Shown here one piece after another: positions 4,934 through 56,733 of a stretch of DNA of 64,000 nucleotides. Numbering within the stretch: position 1 is the stretch's first letter; every line of letters begins with the position of its first letter. This DNA is from Microthyrium microscopicum. Its lineage: Eukaryota. The position numbers were made by a program, and so were the translations under genes. The stretch spans positions 224,191-288,190 of the forward strand of contig MU004237.1 of NCBI GenBank assembly GCA_010405405.1, read 5' to 3'. The notes beneath the pieces were generated by a model. The model did not search any database, had not been told where the DNA came from, and saw only the letters and a list, made by a program, of their open reading frames with translations.

Positions 4934-5845
4934 TGTGTTGTATGGTGTGGTTGTGGTTGTTGATGTTGTGCTGATATGGATTGGTGGTTGAGATGGGGGC
5001 CTAGGAGGGGGGAGGCGCATGCGTTGGGGAGTCGGACGAGAAGGTGCTGTGTGCTGGGGGATTGATTGCTGGTGGTTGAGTTCTGGAGATCGTGAGGTAG
5101 TAGTTGTCGTCTGGGTAGGAAGATGTGAGGCTTGTGGAGGCTGCTGATATGGTGTGGATGATGTAGTTGAAAGGAACTTGGCGGTTGGCTTGGGTTGGTT
5201 CTGAGACGTCGAATGAATGAGGCCTGAGGCGCCAAGGCAAGAATTTTAACATCGTGAACATCAACAATCGCTTGAACATTAAAGATAGGAGATCCTGACA
5301 CGAATCAGTGCTTCGAACTCCGATTGGTTTTTTGTCATGCTCAAGATCTTAAGAGCCATCCCCTGGTCCAACGCCTTGGTCTGAATTATTGGAGGAATGC
5401 CGCCATCCGTGGCCCCAGTCCCATGTGTAATCATTAATCAACTATCATGCTCTACCATCACTCAATCCTTATGGCTGTTTGAAGCATCTACAAATGTGAG
5501 TTCTTGCTCGCAGTCAATGGCTTAGTCGTAGAAGGCTCAATATTTCTAGGCAAGCAAAGTCGTACTAAACGAGTGTAATATGTACTACTTAGGAAGAGTA
5601 AATACATGAAAAAACAAACTGAACTGCGAAGACAAACGAAACCAGGCGTACAGAGCCCTGGTTTTAAATCCAAATCTATCGTTGTAACTCATGTTGCATT
5701 TTTGCCATCAATAGGAATTCCCGAACACTTCCTATCGATCACCGTTTTGTAGTGCTCAGCATGCCCACTGACAGCTGATCGAGGTGACCAACAACCTTGT
5801 AGCCATGCTCTTCAATGGAAACCAGCGGTAGGCTTCATTTCGAGC

Positions 5846-6196
5846 TTACAACTTTGGTCCTTTTGGTGGGTCTGGGACGGTCTTATAGCCAGGAGAGGTA
5901 TTGAGTGGGATCCAGCGGTTGGCACCAGCCTCACTGCGAGCCTTCACCTTTGGTCCCTTTGGTGGGTCTGGGACAACCTTATAGCCAGGAGAAGTGTTGA
6001 GTGGGATCCAGCGGTTGGCACCAGCCTCACTGCGAGCCTTCACCTTTGGTCCCTTTGGTGGGTCTGGGACAACCTTATAGCCAGGAGAGGTGTTTAGTGG
6101 GATCCAGCGGTTGGCGGCCTCGACGCTCTGCTCAGCAGGAGCTGGGTTGGCAAACGCAACTCCACCGAGAAATGCGACAATAGTGATGAGTTGCAT
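5846..6196 (-). CDS. Putative RiPP precursor peptide (signal peptide plus three repeats carrying WIPLNTSPGY)
   Basis: 116 aa; hydrophobic signal MQLITIVAFLGGVAFA; 32-aa (96-nt) period repeat ANRWIPLNTSPGYK(V/T)VPDPPKGPK..; adjacent to two DUF3328 genes. Confidence 0.9.
   Translation of the reverse strand: MQLITIVAFLGGVAFANPAPAEQSVEAANRWIPLNTSPGYKVVPDPPKGPKVKARSEAGANRWIPLNTSPGYKVVPDPPKGPKVKARSEAGANRWIPLNTSPGYKTVPDPPKGPKL
5852..6116. repeat. 96-nt coding tandem repeat, about 2.75 copies
   Basis: gggatccagcggttggc recurs at 5907, 6003 and 6099. Confidence 0.95.
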
Positions 6197-6362
6197 GATT
6201 GTAGAGGTTTTGGAACGGTTTAAGTAATGTTTCGTACGGATTGATGATCTTGAAGATGAGCGATGATGTGGATAATTGAAGATGTGGACAAGTGATGATG
6301 TGGATGAGTGGTGATGTGGATGAGTGGTGATGAGGACGAAATGGAGTGCGATATCTTCAGTA

Positions 6363-6368
6363 TTTATA
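6363..6368 (-). promoter_or_regulatory. Candidate TATA box of the precursor gene
   Basis: Minus-strand TGTATAAATA about 170 nt upstream of the ATG at 6196, followed by a CATC-rich leader. Confidence 0.5.
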
Positions 6369-7085
6369 CAGAACTTTCAAAGCCATGAGGCTTGAATCTA
6401 AACAGCCTCTTGAATCCATATCATCACAACTTTTCCGGTTCAGACAAGTGAAGGATCCTATGACTTCCGGCATATTCACACTCTCTGCCTGGTAAAGCCC
6501 TCAACGCAAAGGTTCGTGCGAAGGGAAGCCTTCGAAACCATGATCCAGCTGGATCATCCCACAAACAATGCAATAAATTGTGTAATCCAACCCAAGTTTT
6601 GAAGTTGTATACCTGCTCCTAAAACATGGGATTGCCTCCGTCTATCAATTTTCTGGAGTAAGTTGACAATCCTACAAGCGCCTTACCATTTAGCGTTGTT
6701 TCGGATTTATATTGCAAAGTAGATCTATTATGTACAACCGTGGGTGTTGAGGGATGTGCTGATCGTCGAAGGAAGTCGGGAGGAGGATCCTCCCAATATC
6801 TACATTATCCGCAATCCTCCCTTCTGTGAACCAACTCTATTTTAACAAGGATCAGACAAATTTAGAACATGGCTGCTTACACAGCTCGGCCGCTGGCACG
6901 ACTATCAAAAAGATCCCATAAAACTTCGCCTGCTTTGATATATCACAGTGACATTCTAGAAGCTTGTTTGTTCTATTAGAATCACTCATCATTTGAAGTA
7001 AGACACCTGAGTATTTTCAAATTTCAATACAAAAAGCTCGAGTTGTTGGCAAATAAATTAGTCTATTTTGAGAACAAAAACAAGG

Positions 7086-7984
7086 ATGTCCCAGGACAAG
7101 TCAACAGCACGAGTATTGAGACAACTCTACTTTCCAATACAGTCGCAGCAACAACGACCCCCAACAGCTCAAGACCAAAACAGCCAAGGGGAATTCGAGG
7201 AAGGCGGGTTTTCGTACTACTCTAACTCTCAATCACGCAAGAAATGGCACTACAGAGGCATCATTTTACTTCTCAATTCGGCAATCTTGGTATTGGTAAC
7301 TCTTATCTATGTCCGACCTATCCAGGACATGAGAAGTAATGATGTATCGATACCGAACACGCTTCCTAATGGTATTTGGCTGCTTGCAATTCTGCAGAAC
7401 TATCGAATGCTGACAACCTTAAACAGTGCCCTTTGAGCCCAAAAAGTTCGACTACGACAAAAAGTATATGGGCTGGCCAACTGTGGCCCGAAACAAAGCC
7501 TGGATGTCTTTACAAGGACGTAAGTTTTATACACAGGAACGAATGGAGACAGACAGTCTACTGACAAAAAGTCACAGCGCCTGATCAGCATCCAACCTTT
7601 GTAACTTTCAACAAGAAATCATACCAAATTACGATGTACCACCAGCTCCACTGTTTAGCAATGGTGCGGAAAATGCTGTGGGACGTTGTCCTTGGAAATG
7701 AGGATGCAAAGCAGCTTCTAGGTGGCAGCATTCCAGACATGACTTCAGAAGACACTCTGGGTAATTACAACACTACAGTTCATTGGCGGCTGCAGCACGC
7801 CGACCACTGCCTCGATTTTATACGACAAGGCCTCCAGTGTAATGGCGATGTTGGTCTTGAGCCCGCGATAATGGGCGAAAACAATATCATTGCCGGGGTA
7901 ATGTTTGGAACTATTTCACACCAATGTCGCAGCTGGGACTACGTCAGGAAGTTTGCGGAGGACCATAGACCTGCACCAAGTTAG
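7086..7984 (+). CDS. DUF3328/UstYa-family oxidase (exons 7086-7371, 7427-7519, 7578-7984)
   Basis: N-terminal TM helix; spliced frame gives ..ARNKAWMSL..; two HxxHC motifs YHQLHCL and HADHCLDFIRQGLQCNGDVGLEP; C-terminal HQCRSWD; canonical GT-AG introns restore the frame. Confidence 0.93.
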
Positions 7985-8235
7985 TAAGGACATTATGTTT
8001 CCACAGCCTTTTCATACAGGTGTGCTCATTTGCGTGATCCGCAGCCTATTGAGACCGAATGGTGGGCTTTTACTTCCACAACCGCGCTGAATCGCAAAGA
8101 CATAAGCAGCAGCGGTAGTCAAAAGGCTGAAAGCGATCAGGACGGTGGGAAATTACCCAAGAAGCATGTCTCCTTGAACACGTTTGATATGAACCATGTA
8201 TATCATGTACACACAACAAGATGCCTGATCATCTT

Positions 8236-8864
8236 TTATGTAGGCTTTATGTAAATGAAATAAAGAGTCGAATCTGACGGAGCAGGGTTTGATCCTGCAC
8301 CGCTAATCGCTTCCATCTCTTCCTCCTCTGACGGCTCTGAAGTTGTCGGTGGTCCAGGATATGGCTTTGGTGCATCGTGAACGAAGCCACACTTCTCTAA
8401 TACCTTTCGACTAGCATGGTTCTCTGCCGAGAGAAGAGTTTGAATACAGAGACGTTTGGGTTGCAATTTGAAGAAAGCCACCAAAAAGGCTGCCAACGCT
8501 TCAGTTGCATATCCTCGGTTCCAAAATTTGGGATCTATCATGTAATGCACCTTATCCCAGCGATTTACACCAACGATGCCAATAATCGTGGTCTCTTCTT
8601 TTTGCAATATCGTGTACATTATGCTACGAGGTCCATTTCGGATCTCTTGGATCCATTCTTCCGTTTCTGAAATAGACTTCCACGGGCCAGTCCATCTAGC
8701 TCAATCAGCGTCCTGGTGCTCAGAAGTCAACCTCTGAAACGTGTTGCTTAAACTCACATGTGTCGGTAAACTTCTTCTTGGGACCTAATAGCGTGAAGCT
8801 CTGGGGCATCAGTTACCGCGATCGGACGAAGAATCAGTCGGCTGGTATAGATTTCATTAGCCAT
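8236..8864 (-). CDS. GNAT N-acetyltransferase, RimJ/RimL type (exons 8864-8758, 8695-8236)
   Basis: MANEIYTSRLILRPI N-terminus; acetyl-CoA-binding motif FWNRGYATEAL; N..SRKVLEKCGF. Confidence 0.88.
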
Positions 8865-9252
8865 GGCTTCCACACTGAGTATCGTTTCCAGACAGCAATG
8901 CTGCTCAACGATGATGAGAGTCTCTAGCCACCTCAGTGTACAGTACGTGGTGCTCCCGTAGCGAGATACCTTTATCGTTATGCAGTAGTTGGCTAAGTCT
9001 GGGCCGAGGGTGATTCTAGTGGTAGCCGACGAGCCGTACCGTCGCTACCGGGAATGGATCTGCCAGATGCATGCAATAAACATAAGTCCCCTGCTTTAAA
9101 GCATATTCCTGCAGATCCAGCCGGATTCAACGGGCCAGGCCTGTGTGCCTGCTCAACTCACCACAAGCCATCGCTCAATGTCAGTGCCAAATGCTTCATA
9201 CCATGTATCTTAGTTGCGCAAGTCAATATCTTGAACACGAGAAACTCTTATT

Positions 9253-10089
9253 CTAACCGCTTGTTCGGTATTTATCTATGCTCATTCTGTTCTTGCTCGC
9301 CCAACGAACCACAGCATCGTAGTCTCTACATGTCCGTTCTGAGCCCCACCCACTAGCACCGCCCAAATCAGCTCCCAAAGGCTCCATATTCGTGTCTGCC
9401 GCACACATCAAAACCTGACGCAAGTAATCGAAACAGTGGCCCATGTGGCCTTCAGCACCGTGACCTTCATGTCCTCCATGGGCCATAGGTTTGGAAGATA
9501 ACGCATTGTAGTACGCTCCATGAAGAGAATACTGTTTACCCAACATTGTTAACTACATCTGGCAAGACTACGTGGATGCTTTCAAGACTTACCAGGCAGT
9601 GAAGGCTATGGAAAACGGTCATTGCAGAAGGCTCCGGTGCGATAATTGGATGCTCCACAAAGCCACCGCCCACTTGGAATCATTAGTATTTCATGTATTA
9701 AGCGAGGATGGAGCGATACCTGGAAAGAGAGAGCTCCACGCCTTGAGACCCTCGTCCGAGGGAGCGTCCGTGAATGTGTGGTTGAAGAGTAGAACACGTT
9801 TCATGGTCCCAGGCGGTGCTTTGAGCAGTTAGCCAATATCTAGGCAATTGTAGATTTCATTTGACATACGCTGAAAGTCACGATATTTGTGAACAATGGA
9901 TCCACTGTTGACGCCAGCGAAAAAGCCGAGCAAGGCCGTAGTAATTACTAGTAGAGAAGAGAGAATCCATGGACCGTGTCTCGTTCGTCCATGTCGGTGT
10001 CGATAAACATCATCTTGACCATCAATTTCGCTTGTAAGACTGGAGTCTTCCTCCGTTTCGTGTGAAACTGGCCGATATTCACTTTTCAT
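9253..10089 (-). CDS. Second DUF3328/UstYa-family oxidase (4 exons: about 10089-9870, 9818-9721, 9672-9593, 9531-9253)
   Basis: N-terminal TM; spliced KAWSSLFPVGGGFVEHP..VFHSLHCL; second motif HMGHCFDYLRQVLMCAADTNMEP; GWGSERTCRDYD. Confidence 0.93.
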
Positions 10090-11612
10090 CGTGGGCAATG
10101 GAAAGTTGCTTGCTAATGATTGAGGTATTGAAAGATCCAATGGTAGAAAATAACGTGAGTTTCGATGGCACTTAGAAGGTAGCTGTTCCAAGTGCAAGTT
10201 CTCGCCTTTAGTATTGCCACGCAATAAGGGACAGAGCTGAATGGAGCAATCAAGGAGAAATCCTTGAAGGAAGTTATGACATGATTACAGTTTTAGAGTC
10301 CACACGGTCATCAATCCCTAGGATTCAGTTCATCAGTTCTTCACAACTCCTACGACTACTTTATAATCCTTCAGGAGTCCAGGTAAGTTCCCGCCCGCCC
10401 CGGCCACAATCAGAAAGCCCTTAAGTGCCGTGAGTACAGCAAATTTCTAGAACATCGAGTCGGGTCGAAGTAGTCAGATTTGAATAGAGACAATGAAATC
10501 TAATAGGGACGCGATACCCGTTCCGTCAGAAGGTTCTTATGGTTCCTACAAGGAAGCCTTGAACGCAGCCAAAAACCATGGGCTTAAGAATGAATCTAAA
10601 CTTAAACTCAATTCTTTCAGATACAGACCCCAATGCCTTCCAGAGAATTGTAACAGAGATTGGCAACGGCATAGCAAAATAAATAAAGTTCTCCCATCGA
10701 CTCTGATGGCTGCCACCAACGCTCTTAACCAAAAGGTGCTATACTTCCCATTATATTCGATAAACTATTCGAATTGAAACATCCTTCATGGCAAATGAAC
10801 CACTTGATAAAAGAGCGTAGCGGATAAGAGGCAACCAGGCTGATGGAAGTGTGCCATTTATTTTGACGACTTGTTGACTACTACTAGTAGGAGCCAGCAG
10901 TATAACTGCACTGAGTTGATTATAATAGTGAGACAGCTGGCATTATCAATAACATGCCGCTTTATTGATTGTACTCCTATGATGTTTTACGACTATCATT
11001 TTGTCGACCGTGAAGCGTTCTACAGTGAATCCTTTGCTCGTGCTCGTTAAACTGCCCCTTTAACAACGCTACTTTTTCTGCAGCTACTTATGTAGCAGGT
11101 CTTACAATTCGTCCTACGGCTTCTCCCAAAGTGCCTCCTACTGCTCCTTCTGCTGCCCCTTTTGCTCCTGGTCGTCTGGAACGTGCTGCAGTAGAGCAGG
11201 CTTCGGCGGCGTGGGCAGGACTCGGTCCTCAAAAGCGACAGCGACGGAAATAGGCTTTCTTGTGCGGAGTTGTGTGTCAAAAGTGCCTGCTCGAGGCATT
11301 CTCATTTCTTGAAGACAAAGTTTTTTGGAATAACATTGTTTTCTGCTACTTGTGCCTACCTAATCTAAACACTCGACGAAACCAGTTCATTCTATCAACC
11401 AACGAGAGAAGAATAGCAGGTCGAAGGCTTGTAACTATCAATAACCGCCACCATGAACCTCGCTATGCACAAACCCAATCTCAAGTGCAGAGGATACTAA
11501 TAACAAGAATAGAAACAACACATCGAGCCCTCGCACAGATATGAGTGCGACAGAGCCTATCCAAAAAGTTCCCTGTTCATCCGCGAACAGCCCACGATAT
11601 CTGAGAAGCGGG

Positions 11613-14600
11613 CTATGCTCCAAAGGACTGTAGCTTGTTCTGCTCTTCAGCTGTCAACGCGCTGAAGAGATCGTTGAAACCAGGCTTCTGACTCGCTTGG
11701 TGGAAGAATTGAATCAAGTAAGCTTGAGTCTCATCATCCCGCTGGCGGTTGGCGCCTGGGTTTTCATCCGCAAAGGCCATGAGTTCCTTGATATTCGCTC
11801 CACCAAAGTCTAGAGTGTTGGGGTCATCTTCCCAATCCTCATCATCACTTCCTTCATCTTCGGCAGCTTCTAGAGCAGCGGCTTCTAGTTCGTGTTTTGA
11901 GCCGCTGGCGAATTGTAGTTCCTCTACCAGAACCTTGATAATCTTGAGATTGGCTGGTACAACAGTGAATTCATCAGGTTCTACGAGTGATTAGAATGTG
12001 ACATTGACTGCGTTGTGTTGCGAGAAAAACTTACGTAGTTTTGCACGAGATCGGGTCATAATGCGGTCGCTGACAGGCACGATCAAATCGCCTTTGACTT
12101 GAATGTGTGACAGGCGAGGATCCTCGAGTTCATAGAGTTTGGTAAGTGCAAGCACACTGAGAGAATTAGACACAACCGCAAGTTAGAGTAGACATGAGCT
12201 TACTTTTGACGGATTTCATCATATCCTGCGAAATTGACTGAGTTCTCAAGCCATTTGACAATAACCACGTCAAGACCATTATGGTCGCCAATTTGAACCT
12301 GGCCCAGAAAGTCCACGACATCTTTGGCGTTAGTAAGCGCCAATCGAGCAAAGACCAGAATAAGGCTTTGGATGAATTGAGCCTGGGTGGCACTTCCAAG
12401 GCGAACCGCTACAGCTTGAAGTAGTTGCATGAGGTATGGTCCAAGTCGTTCGGATCCAGCCTTCTCTACGAGTTCAGCAGCAAGACCACCAACTTCAGCA
12501 CCTGCGTTGTCCTCGACATGTGGGCCAAGCAGTCGATCAATGATCAGCAATATTACTTCCAGTCCATATTTGGAAGTTGTTGCATCTTGCCATTCTAGCA
12601 GCTGCTTGTGATCATGGGTTAGAATGTTTTTGACCGAAGCTGTGCAGCTCTTGAGCAGCTCGTCGTCATTCGATTGCAAGAGAATTTGAGTTAACTTGGG
12701 CATAATGGCACCAACAAAGCCATTTGGAAGTGGCTCAGAGCCGAATTTGGTCAATACCGTGAGCAGGTCCGCAGCGAGATTCAGCAAGGCATTAGCTTCG
12801 GTGGGATCGCCAATTCTAAAGGCGCCAATCACCATAGGCAAAATTTTCTCACAAAGCTGCGAGTATTGGTCTGCTCCCTCTGCCGCGATTCGCTCTGTGA
12901 CCTCTTCGAAGGTTTCGCTAACCATTGCAGAAATCATAAACAGTCCAGCGCCGTAGCTTGCAGTCCTAAACAAGAGATCTAGGCCACCGAGACTGATAGC
13001 TGCGTGGGTGTCTAATAGTATAGAATCGCGGATCGTTTGTATGAGAACTGCCATGAAGTCGTCCGATTCTGCCCTCTCTTGCAGATCCTGAGAGCTGACA
13101 AAGTTGCTAAGCATGTTGATTATGGGACCTTGCAAGGGGATAGCAAACTCGACACAGGGTTGTTCGATATAAAATTGCATAGCACGAACACATGCAACTT
13201 TTACAACATCCGAGTCGTCATTGTTGATGGCGTTCATGGTAGCTTGAAGATACACTTCGCCAGCACCAGTCAGATTGGTTCCAGCACATCTTATCAAACT
13301 CCCAGCAACCAAATACCCTCGAGCACGAAGAAATTCGTCTGACTGATGAATGGCGTTGTTGACGTATTCAACAAAACCGTTGGCCACTTCGGCACTGATC
13401 TGCTGTTCGGCCTCCTGGAAATAGAGCAGAAACTGGCTAAGTAGATAGAGGGTAGATTCCTTACTCTTCCAATCTTGTTCTGCGCCACCAAGAGACTGAA
13501 CATAAGAGAGGAGGCCATCAATCGCAGTATGCTTGAGCCAATCAGACAGATTTGTTGCTAGATCACCACATGCGGTTCTGGAGGTGTAGTTGGCAGTCAC
13601 ACCAGATTCTTCGGATAAGAAAATGTTAACATCAAAATTCCATAAACCCTCTTCCTCCGTGGTGATTTGGGCGTATGCAACAATGAGTTTCATGACTTCG
13701 GTCACCCAAGTTCCGCCTACACCAGTTGAATTTTGAAGTTGACCCTCGAGTTCTTTTTTGACTGGAGCAGCTTTGAGACAGGCCTTCATGAAATCCAACT
13801 CTTCCAGAACCAACCAATCGAGCGTGTATGGAAGTCCATCATCGTCTTCCAGCCTGTTTGGCCGCGAATCTTGAATGAACATGTTCTGATATGCATTTTG
13901 AAGAGAGGAGAGCTCTTCCCAGGTAGCTGTGAAGAGAGTTGGAGATTGTGGGGCGAGATTTGAAGGAAATATTTGTCTGATACGCATCAAAGCCTTGTAA
14001 TGATTAGTCAATGCTCATATGCAATGCTGTGGAACATCTTACCTTGACAGCTTGAAGCTTTAGTGCTACCAAGCCACGATAGCTTTGGGCACTAGGACTT
14101 CTTTGGCTCTCTTCTTCCGTGGTTGGTGGATTCGGGAGCTTTGATTGCAGGATCTGGAGGAAGAAAGGTACCCATCGTGTCAGGGTCTCATCTGCAAAGT
14201 TTTGAACAGCGTCTTTGTGCTCCTCCATGACCATTTCAAGAATATCAAAGCAGCCACGGAACACAAGTATAGCCAAGGCTCGAACTGTTGTTTTTAGAGC
14301 GTCGTTGGTTGCGACATTGTACACACTGTCAACTAGTTCTCTAGCAACGCCGAAAAACTGTTCCTCGTTAAAGCTTTCATCAATCAAATCGGCCAGGAGC
14401 TTCAAGGCACCGCCAATTTGATCTTCTGTGCCACTCTGAACTACGCGTAGGGTGGTGGGAAGCAGGTCAGGCCACTCGTCTGGGAAATCCGTACTTCCAA
14501 TCTTACTACACACGTAGCTAGCAGCCTTTCTAATTTTGCGCTCGTTGCTGTTCAGGGCGAGTTCGAGCAAAGTTTGGCGCAACTGGAGTTTTTCTTCGTC

Positions 14601-55657: not shown

Positions 55658-56338
55658 TCAGCCCTCCCTCTTCTTGACTTTCTCTTCCCAATCCTTCCTC
55701 GTAATTCCCATCAGAACCAAATCCCTAAGCTCTCCTCTCTTCCAAACCGCATTCCTCACCCTTCCCTCCTCACGACACCCAACCTTCCTCAATACGCCCA
55801 AGCTCGCCTCATTCCCACCGAAGATCCCCGCTCCCAACCTAACCAAATCCTCGCCCTCAACACCCGTCAACCCGCCCTTCAACCCAAACAGCCAGCCAAT
55901 GAACGCATCCACCGCTTCACTCATATACCCCTTTCCCCAATACTCTTTGCCAATCCAATACCCAATCTCCGCGCCTCTTCGATGCACATCAGCCTGGATA
56001 TCCGTGCCAATACCACCAATCATGACCTCCGGCGCATCTGCCAAACAGATACAGAAATGGTGGATGGGTGGGCCGGGAGCATTGGCGGCTGCGTTGGACG
56101 AGACGAAGTTTATGAACGTTTGCGCTGACTCCAGGGTATATGGATAGGGAAAGCGGTCGGTCATGCTAGCAGAGATGGCTTCATCGTTTGCAAGAGAAGC
56201 ACTACGGGGAGCATCTTTGATGTGGTATGGCCGGATTATGAGACGGGTGGTGGTGAGGAGGGCGGCTGGCGGGTATGGCATTGTGTCCCATTGGATTGTT
56301 TTCTCCTGAGAGGTAAAGGCGGTCTTTTCGGCGAGCAT
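55658..56338 (-). CDS. GNAT N-acetyltransferase (RimJ/RimL type)
   Basis: TTRLIIRPY; FPYPYT; AEIGYWIGKEYWGKGYMSEAV; NEASLGVLRKVG..EG. Confidence 0.88.
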   Translation of the reverse strand: MLAEKTAFTSQEKTIQWDTMPYPPAALLTTTRLIIRPYHIKDAPRSASLANDEAISASMTDRFPYPYTLESAQTFINFVSSNAAANAPGPPIHHFCICLADAPEVMIGGIGTDIQADVHRRGAEIGYWIGKEYWGKGYMSEAVDAFIGWLFGLKGGLTGVEGEDLVRLGAGIFGGNEASLGVLRKVGCREEGRVRNAVWKRGELRDLVLMGITRKDWEEKVKKREG

Positions 56339-56733
56339 ATTGTATGTGGTTGGAATATTTAGGATTGTCTGTTGCCTTAGGTGGAGGATTGACGGATTCT
56401 GATTTTTGGAGTAGGAGCGTCTTGCTGCTAGGTCTTCAGGCCTATTTATTTTTGTCTGGCTGTGTTTGGATGACTGGATGATTTTAGAGTACAGTCGATA
56501 CCATGATCTTGAACTGTTCACGAGTCCTTGGCACAGGATGAATCATCTGGGGAGAAATGAGTCAAATGCGGTTGATGTAACCATGGTATACCTTCCGTAT
56601 CTTTGTACTATTTATAGGCAATATGATTGGCGAGGATCCCTGGGGTACTCAAAATCCGCCTAATAGATAAAAAGATTTGAAAGCATTGAATCTGACGTTT
56701 CTGAGAATTGAGAAATTATCCAAGACATTGACA

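Follow-up and report, generated by a model that had tools for sequence, protein, structure and literature searches.

A UstYa-linked tandem-repeat protein of Microthyrium microscopicum that lacks dibasic sites may be a peptide precursor cut after single arginines

The minus strand of positions 5846-6196 in the window, a 64,000-nucleotide stretch of the genome of Microthyrium microscopicum, a fungus of leaf litter, contains a single open frame of 116 codons and a stop. It is predicted to encode a secreted protein with three tandem repeats and no KR, RR, KK, or RK pair, and two intact UstYa/DUF3328 genes lie within 4 kb of it. We propose, with a probability that we put at about 55%, that this protein is a dikaritin-type multicore precursor that is modified by UstYa, cut at V-K-A-R by the single kexin of the genome, and trimmed by Kex1. 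The initial annotation of this DNA took the lack of Kex2 sites to imply non-canonical processing. This is overstated because the specificity described for Kex2 includes cleavage after a single Arg, so that an unusual enzyme need not be invoked. Such cleavage by Kex2 has already been published and the enzymology is unsurprising. What is new is a second candidate UstYa-linked precursor in this genome that has only x-A-R boundaries, and a metagenomic one that alternates between single Arg and KR. Both large catalogues of fungal precursors require a dibasic site, so such precursors are excluded by construction. If single-Arg processing holds, a filter for aliphatic-x-x-R beside DUF3328 genes would add substrates for orphan UstYa proteins and new peptide chemistry.

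Results

Structure of the precursor gene

The repeat units and the KARSEAG linker read as the initial annotation had described them (Table 1). The repeats have a period of 96 nt (TRF; 2.9 copies, 93% matches), and the 116 residues include 20 Pro, 11 Lys, and 5 Arg. With a slash marking the bond that would be cut, the five Arg are in the contexts EAANR/WIP, KVKAR/SEA, AGANR/WIP, KVKAR/SEA, and AGANR/WIP. When the 32-aa unit was shuffled 20,000 times, 31% of the shuffles were free of dibasic pairs and 70% were free of KR and RR. As a mere sequence pattern the absence of such pairs is unremarkable; it matters only given the neighbouring genes, being unusual among repeat precursors beside UstYa genes.

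In the NCBI annotation this locus is BT63DRAFT_456613, a protein of 189 aa with a differing C-terminus that arises because the model splices out of the final codons to an exon far away (intron 5848 to about 5224). This model likewise has no KR, RR, KK, or RK. We set it aside, and in any case it adds no dibasic site. A contig from run X5, which is RNA by guess (its contigs skip two introns), is unspliced across 5848 but contains a plus-strand intron and is therefore no test of sense splicing. The spliced antisense RNA of this contig looks non-coding and starts near the 5' end of the SNARE gene. The NCBI model's second exon overlaps with this RNA, which may account for the 189-aa prediction. The X5 contigs cover 5000-6026, 8207-8945, and 9101-9671 with no piece over 6027-8206, which holds the 5' part of the precursor gene and the first UstYa gene (UstYa-1); contigs of this kind cannot show absence, strand, or level. 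A plus-strand frame at 5753-6097 that contains RR pairs has no start codon and was rejected as a shadow of the repeat. The presumed 5' untranslated region of the precursor gene contains a short tandem repeat of 16 nt (6262-6336, 4.7 copies).

Table 1. Features of the precursor gene and its neighbours in the window, with a second candidate precursor from another locus of the genome
Feature	Position	Strand	Details and basis
Precursor gene	5846..6196	-	Single-exon gene for 116 aa; signal peptide, then leader, then three 32-aa repeats; 0 dibasic pairs
Predicted signal peptide, aa 1-16, ending A-F-A	6149..6196	-	Hydropathy 2.0-2.7 in 9-residue windows starting at aa 1-8; cut point inferred
Leader, aa 17-30, ending E-A-A-N-R	6107..6148	-	Translation
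Repeat 1 core and K-A-R, aa 31-55, one Trp and one Tyr	6032..6106	-	Translation
Proposed main Kex2 site 1, V-K-A-R/, aa 52-55	6032..6043	-	Inferred from Kex2 rule and site comparison
Spacer 1, 7 aa, aa 56-62, ending A-N-R	6011..6031	-	May be a second site or belong to a recognition sequence
Repeat 2 core and K-A-R, aa 63-87, protein identical to repeat 1	5936..6010	-	2 silent differences
Proposed main Kex2 site 2, V-K-A-R/, aa 84-87	5936..5947	-	Inferred from Kex2 rule and site comparison
Spacer 2, 7 aa, aa 88-94	5915..5935	-	Translation
Repeat 3 core, aa 95-116, with the stop in the position of the K-A-R Lys codon	5846..5914	-	Unit codon 26: AAG vs TAA
Decayed fourth repeat, 3' untranslated region	5791..5850	-	Identical at 46/60 aligned bases, with a 6-nt and a 4-nt gap
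Spliced RNA antisense to 3' part of precursor gene, no long ORF	5002..5930	+	Run X5 contig, intron 5496-5549 GT..AG
Putative TATA-like element, about 165 bases upstream of precursor start codon	6361..6368	-	Read from sequence
UstYa/DUF3328 gene 1, three exons; hydrophobic N-terminal segment and two HxxHC motifs	7086..7984	+	PF11807, E 1e-21
GNAT acetyltransferase (Acetyltransf_3), 188 aa with an intron at 8696-8757; signal peptide not seen	8236..8864	-	Intron skipped in run X5
UstYa/DUF3328 gene 2, 225 aa in four exons; hydrophobic N-terminal segment and two HxxHC motifs	9253..10089	-	PF11807, E 8.7e-17
C9 UstYa-linked secreted repeat protein, 21-aa His/Lys/Ala/Gly-rich cores without Tyr or Trp	L044:3590-4353 = G000:C9:1835189-1835952	+	

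Neighbouring genes

UstYa-1 (BT63DRAFT_456614 in NCBI, 261 aa) is divergent from the precursor gene with 889 bp separating the two start codons. Read through their introns, both UstYa frames and the GNAT gene are open with all motifs. These three are the only genes between 6196 and 10300, in agreement with the earlier statement that no protease gene lies inside the cluster; beyond them, four small open reading frames at 10484-11541 and one at 11616-11990 gave no Pfam match. Among 24 further open reading frames scanned in the window, the sole match to a protease family was a JAB/MPN domain with an eIF3h tail approximately 38 kb from the cluster. The flanks are occupied by housekeeping genes for a SNARE, Rox3, and Rad10 on one side and for importin-9 and a HORMA protein on the other. 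Membership of the GNAT gene in the cluster is uncertain because no signal peptide was seen on its product. GNAT genes adjoining UstY homologs are reported from lichen clusters (PMC12048977). The window contains a second Acetyltransf_3 GNAT gene at 55661-56542 (-), 47 kb from the cluster.

Other UstYa loci in the genome

A search of the M. microscopicum genome with PF11807 gave 22 matches that we grouped as 14 genes at 12 loci. Within about 9 kb on each side of the other 11 loci, there were repeat-type secreted candidates at five, short Tyr-rich secreted open reading frames at two, and no recognisable precursor at four (C8:843.8k, C1:3957.9k, C2:670.8k, and C14:515.1k). Three of the five repeat-type candidates have KR or RKR at every boundary, one has scattered RR and KR, and one, at locus C9, is of the single-Arg type.

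The C9 gene is about 1 kb from a UstYa pair and divergent from it. Its product reads H-A-A-R, a 7-residue spacer, and V-E-A-R at every boundary, and all 10 Arg encoded by the last exon are in an x-A-R context. This layout, in which an Arg is followed by a 7-aa spacer starting with Ser or Asn and then by another Arg, is also that of the 5846-6196 precursor. The C9 protein is not dibasic-free, having KK inside the unit and one KR in the leader. Its motif was confined to that locus in the genome (3 matches, control 0) and its exon had no homolog among 8000 scored candidates. No homology was detectable between the two precursors (shuffle p 0.46-0.55). A tree of 14 UstYa C-terminal fragments, one row of which was mis-anchored, gave support to 0 of 11 branches and is silent on the kinship of the two monobasic clusters.

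Canonical KR-type precursors adjoin UstYa genes at L042:2277-3269 (+), L029:6553-6946 (+), and L045:3819-4876 (+). The first of these contains several differing cores and a run of non-dibasic six-residue repeats, and in the last the repeats are at the end of a longer secreted protein. A multi-exon secreted protein with R-D-G-G-R-D-G-(H/Y) repeats is encoded at L026:3023-3790 (+), 2-3 kb from the C6 UstYa gene. The short secreted Tyr-rich frames (L027:4262-4537 (-), L027:6735-7188 (-), and L034:2249-2473 (+)) are Y-G-x-Y-like and have no internal dibasic pair. They adjoin the UstYa genes C5 and C7:185k, whose fragments group weakly with one another (83/68).

UstYa-linked precursors in metagenomes

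A metagenome survey with one UstYa pattern led to 178 confirmed stretches out of 207. We analysed the best 80 of the 178, which formed 52 groups, 25 of them under 5 kb. Nine groups from these best 80 stretches had a recognisable repeat precursor, and eight of the nine were strictly dibasic, one was mixed, and none was dibasic-free, a count that may be biased towards KR-bearing precursors by our omission, by eye, of other repeat frames that looked like low-complexity sequence or parts of other proteins. Together with two of the six repeat-type candidates in the M. microscopicum genome, these numbers (0/9 dibasic-free and 1/9 mixed among families from the best 80 of 178 stretches) suggest that single-Arg precursors are a minority class.

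The units of one metagenomic precursor, L077, end in I-D-S-R, L-D-N-R, G-E-K-R, L-G-D-R, and L-V-K-R, a single Arg in 3/5 and KR in 2/5. This is our best evidence from sequence that a single Arg with an aliphatic P4 and KR may be interchangeable in this class. The five W-Y-x-D repeats of this protein (L077:7706-8760 (-), found also in L075) continue in frame into a C-terminal region that has two HxxHC-like motifs and no Pfam match. This frame is 1.4 kb from a UstYa gene; a fusion of precursor and DUF3328 is possible.

At L118:2-361 (+) there is a KKR-bounded unit of 31 aa with A-A-N-T-R, W-I, and a Tyr nine residues past the Trp, an echo of the layout at 5846-6196. The likeness between the two units is not significant (p 0.12 and 0.67) and we claim no homology. 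The lowest p among 26 such tests was 0.038 (L108).

Which arginines would be cut

Kex2 accepts almost exclusively Arg at P1 and has Leu or Ile, Val, Ala, or Pro at P4; P2 is variable with a preference for Lys, and Arg, Thr, Pro, Glu, or Ile is next best (Outram 2021, PMC8528282). Its LXXR preference is restated in PMC6258133 and PMC12141369, and four effector pro-domains with LxxR junctions were removed in vitro (SnTox3 preprint). In Pichia, products from three KEPs were cut after a single Arg (Vogt 2022, PMC9769878). Acidic or small residues are favoured at P1' and P2' (Bader 2008, PMC2515848).

The M. microscopicum genome encodes one P-domain kexin in an intact frame of 869 aa, with an E of 5e-174 against yeast Kex2 and conserved active-site segments. 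The Asp-Asp pair that precedes its catalytic His presumably lines the P2 pocket. Epichloe differs in having a second kexin (PMC10540207).

Across the five Arg of the precursor, P4 is Val at two, Ala at one, and Gly at two. None of them combines Leu at P4 with Arg at P1 as in K2PP/LxxR proteins, and Val and Ala are within the wider aliphatic rule. V-K-A-R/S-E fits the preferences of Kex2 at P4, P1, P1', and P2', with an aliphatic P4 and small then acidic residues at P1'-P2'. A-N-R/W-I fits poorly, its P4 being Ala or Gly, its P2 Asn, and its P1' bulky. The initial annotation had put forward cleavage at KAR, ANR, or both; as Kex2 sites, the first agrees with these preferences and the second does not.

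We took 13 other UstYa-linked precursors and compared these sites with their 44 distinct KR/RR sites. At those sites W was absent from P1', which was D, G, S, E, A, N, Y, or T; P2' was D or E in 22/44, and Val was the second commonest P4 (7/44). A canonical precursor in the same genome has V-S-K-R/S-E-A and V-S-K-R/N-E-A, and the S-E-A and N-E-A of these sites match K-A-R/S-E-A of the precursor and A-R-N-E-A of a decayed repeat copy behind it. In the last repeat here, a stop takes the place of the K-A-R Lys, and L062 and L108 likewise have a stop where their last repeat would have the Lys of KR; other UstYa-linked precursors end close to a cleavage site and not exactly on it. V-K-A-R should be a slow Kex2 site because Ala is outside the listed P2 residues and the Val at P4 is not the preferred Leu.

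We propose that the precursor would enter the ER by way of its signal peptide and that one or both of the membrane-anchored UstYa/DUF3328 oxidases, given the known function of this family, would oxidise or cross-link the Tyr that occurs once per unit, the Trp, or both. A single ordinary Golgi kexin would cut after the Arg of V-K-A-R, the aliphatic P4 substituting for a basic P2, and Kex1 would take off the Arg, with the release of units of 29-38 aa. A second cut at A-N-R/W could give cores of 22-24 aa with Trp first. If the rest of this proposal is right, we think that such a cut would less likely be made by Kex2, although with a minority chance that is far from negligible. Counting against the proposal, we found no ortholog with KR at this position, eight of the nine metagenomic families are strictly dibasic and none is dibasic-free, and the C9 precursor has no detectable homology to this one; moreover, other proteases would find many targets among the 11 Lys and 5 Arg.

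A-N-R stands before all three cores, the leader end included, and the decayed copy keeps an Arg before Trp. Both would fit cleavage after single Arg or Lys by another protease encoded elsewhere in the genome, either an aspartyl protease of the yapsin type or a secreted enzyme resembling trypsin or subtilisin, in which case A-N-R/W would be a real site. There are precedents in that Yps1 is able to replace Kex2 in part (PMC12141369) and that removal of the epichloecyclin follower requires an unidentified protease (PMC10540207). We nevertheless regard this as unlikely. V-K-A-R/S-E already suits Kex2, which a secreted precursor would meet first, and there is no linked protease gene. In addition, an Arg of the A-N-R type need not be a site because the A-A-N-T-R of L118 lies within a KKR-bounded unit (likeness not significant, p 0.12).

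Repeat history and homolog searches

Between repeats 1 and 2 there are two silent differences and no replacement. Counting all three coding repeats, we found 5 silent changes against 19 sites and 3 replacement changes against 56 (P = 0.029), a silent excess based on just 8 changes. The decayed fourth repeat, which the initial annotation did not include, follows the stop and aligns with a score of 55 compared to a maximum of 39 among 1000 shuffles. It reads A-R-N-E-A and retains the Arg before Trp. To judge from the alignment, the array was formerly of four units, a stop truncated the last, and just those that are translated have remained intact. Constraint appears to have outlasted the stop because the coding repeats are still in frame with a silent excess while the non-coding copy took two gaps and 14 substitutions in 60 bases. 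The Ala of K-A-R predates the decay because the old copy boundary reads stop-A-R.

In a word-indexed database search with the precursor, its own NCBI model was the sole match (1 of 136 candidates). No ortholog emerged from HMMER over 1.84 billion representatives; the matches were the precursor itself and one protein of 958 aa (E 2.8e-4) that was rejected as unrelated on reading. A metagenome scan confirmed 0 of 172 pattern matches, and the M. microscopicum genome gave one match. Searching with the C-terminal exon of UstYa-1, among longer proteins only, returned itself (1 of 55 candidates) and no close relative. The best feature score in the ESM Atlas (0.89, in ascomycete clusters) was below the reliable level and was not used.

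These searches bear on the possibility that the locus is decaying, an ancestral KR having been lost and the array shrinking with no useful processing now. The fourth repeat that was cut off by a stop and then decayed would agree with this, as would the lack of a precursor relative and of a close UstYa-1 relative in the databases searched and the antisense RNA over the 3' part of the precursor gene. The repeat pattern argues against a dead copy, on small numbers: the damage is in the untranslated copy. Both UstYa genes and the GNAT gene are open with all motifs, and the Ala in place of a basic P2 is older than the decay. We consider loss of function at this locus to be improbable.

Discussion

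The least probable of the alternatives that we weighed is that the precursor escapes cleavage and is secreted as a small repeat protein rich in Pro and Lys, perhaps Tyr-cross-linked by UstYa as a surface or matrix component; it has no canonical site, is rich in Pro and Lys, and has parallels in the Tyr-rich neighbours of C5 and C7:185k, which indicate that UstYa neighbours without Kex2 repeats exist, but an unfolded Pro-rich chain would leave both V-K-A-R sites exposed to Kex2, and the core-spacer layout and stop position resemble those of cleaved precursors.

Cleavage of V-K-A-R by the resident kexin is the reading that we prefer. A more far-reaching form of it, which we hold to be doubtful, is that there is a subclass of UstYa-linked precursors with a grammar of two single-Arg sites (core, x-A-R, 7-residue spacer, Arg) that occurs twice in this genome without shared sequence. 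Both Arg would be cut, and the product of the 5846-6196 locus would be a Trp/Tyr-cross-linked and possibly acetylated peptide of 22-24 residues, longer than described dikaritin cores. If this is true, the subclass has been hidden from every screen with a dibasic filter and could supply the missing substrates of many orphan DUF3328 genes.

Comparison with known systems

We found no description of a DUF3328-linked repeat precursor with single-Arg boundaries in the literature covered, which holds few subscription journals; figures and supplements of Nagano 2016, Kessler 2020, and Bevan 1998 may hold cases. Neither the species nor the peptide was found in the supplements of the two KEP surveys, and the species may simply not have been surveyed.

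The precursor shares a signal peptide and three tandem repeats within the range of 8-100 aa with KEPs (PMC6339444, PMC7329392) and fails their dibasic filter. Umemura 2020 (PMC7329392) required at least three repeats between KR, KK, RK, or RR, and Le Marquer 2019 (PMC6339444) used KR, RR, then KK. KEP screens would therefore miss it, as the initial annotation held. It is not a KEP by definition and may work like one. According to Le Marquer 2019, almost all ustYa-linked precursors of Nagano carry Kex2 sites. Exceptions were anticipated there because that paper allows for unusual Kex2 sites in fungi in which no KEP was found.

With the K2PP/LxxR effectors (Outram 2021, PMC8528282) it has in common a proposed cut after a single Arg with an aliphatic P4. 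In those effectors P4 is mostly Leu and a single folded domain is released, whereas the precursor has a repeated site with Val at P4 and would give short peptides. An alpha-pheromone-type precursor would have KR followed by runs of X-A or X-P dipeptides and no DUF3328 neighbour; here the spacer begins with S-E and there are two UstYa neighbours. Clan R2 of the lichen RiPPs (PMC12048977) is similar by gene content, with a UstY homolog and adjoining GNAT genes, but no repeat precursor was found there.

Cin3 (g7830) of Venturia inaequalis, a related Dothideomycete, has been called a dikaritin precursor (PMC9632046) and has 38-aa units with Trp and Tyr. The Tyr of its YKVV is 15 residues before the Arg of VEKR and, by eye, the Tyr here is 15 before the Arg of VKAR. 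Cin3 uses KR and the rest of its unit is unlike; the match was made post hoc at 6/16 positions and we claim no homology. We take it only as a hint, as an R-anchored 16-mer from C9 reaches 7/16 by composition alone.

The dikaritin precursors (UstA of ustiloxin, PhomA of phomopsin, those of asperipin-2a and victorin, and GigA of epichloecyclin) share with the M. microscopicum protein a predicted signal peptide, tandem cores that contain Tyr, and an adjacent UstYa/DUF3328 protein with two HxxHC motifs. It differs from them in lacking dibasic separation of the cores and in an unrelated core sequence. Its cluster differs from theirs in having no adjoining tyrosinase, methyltransferase, transporter, peptidase, or cluster kexin, and in the GNAT gene that sits between the two UstYa genes. 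Compared in this way, it is plausibly a monobasic variant of the dikaritin-type precursor.
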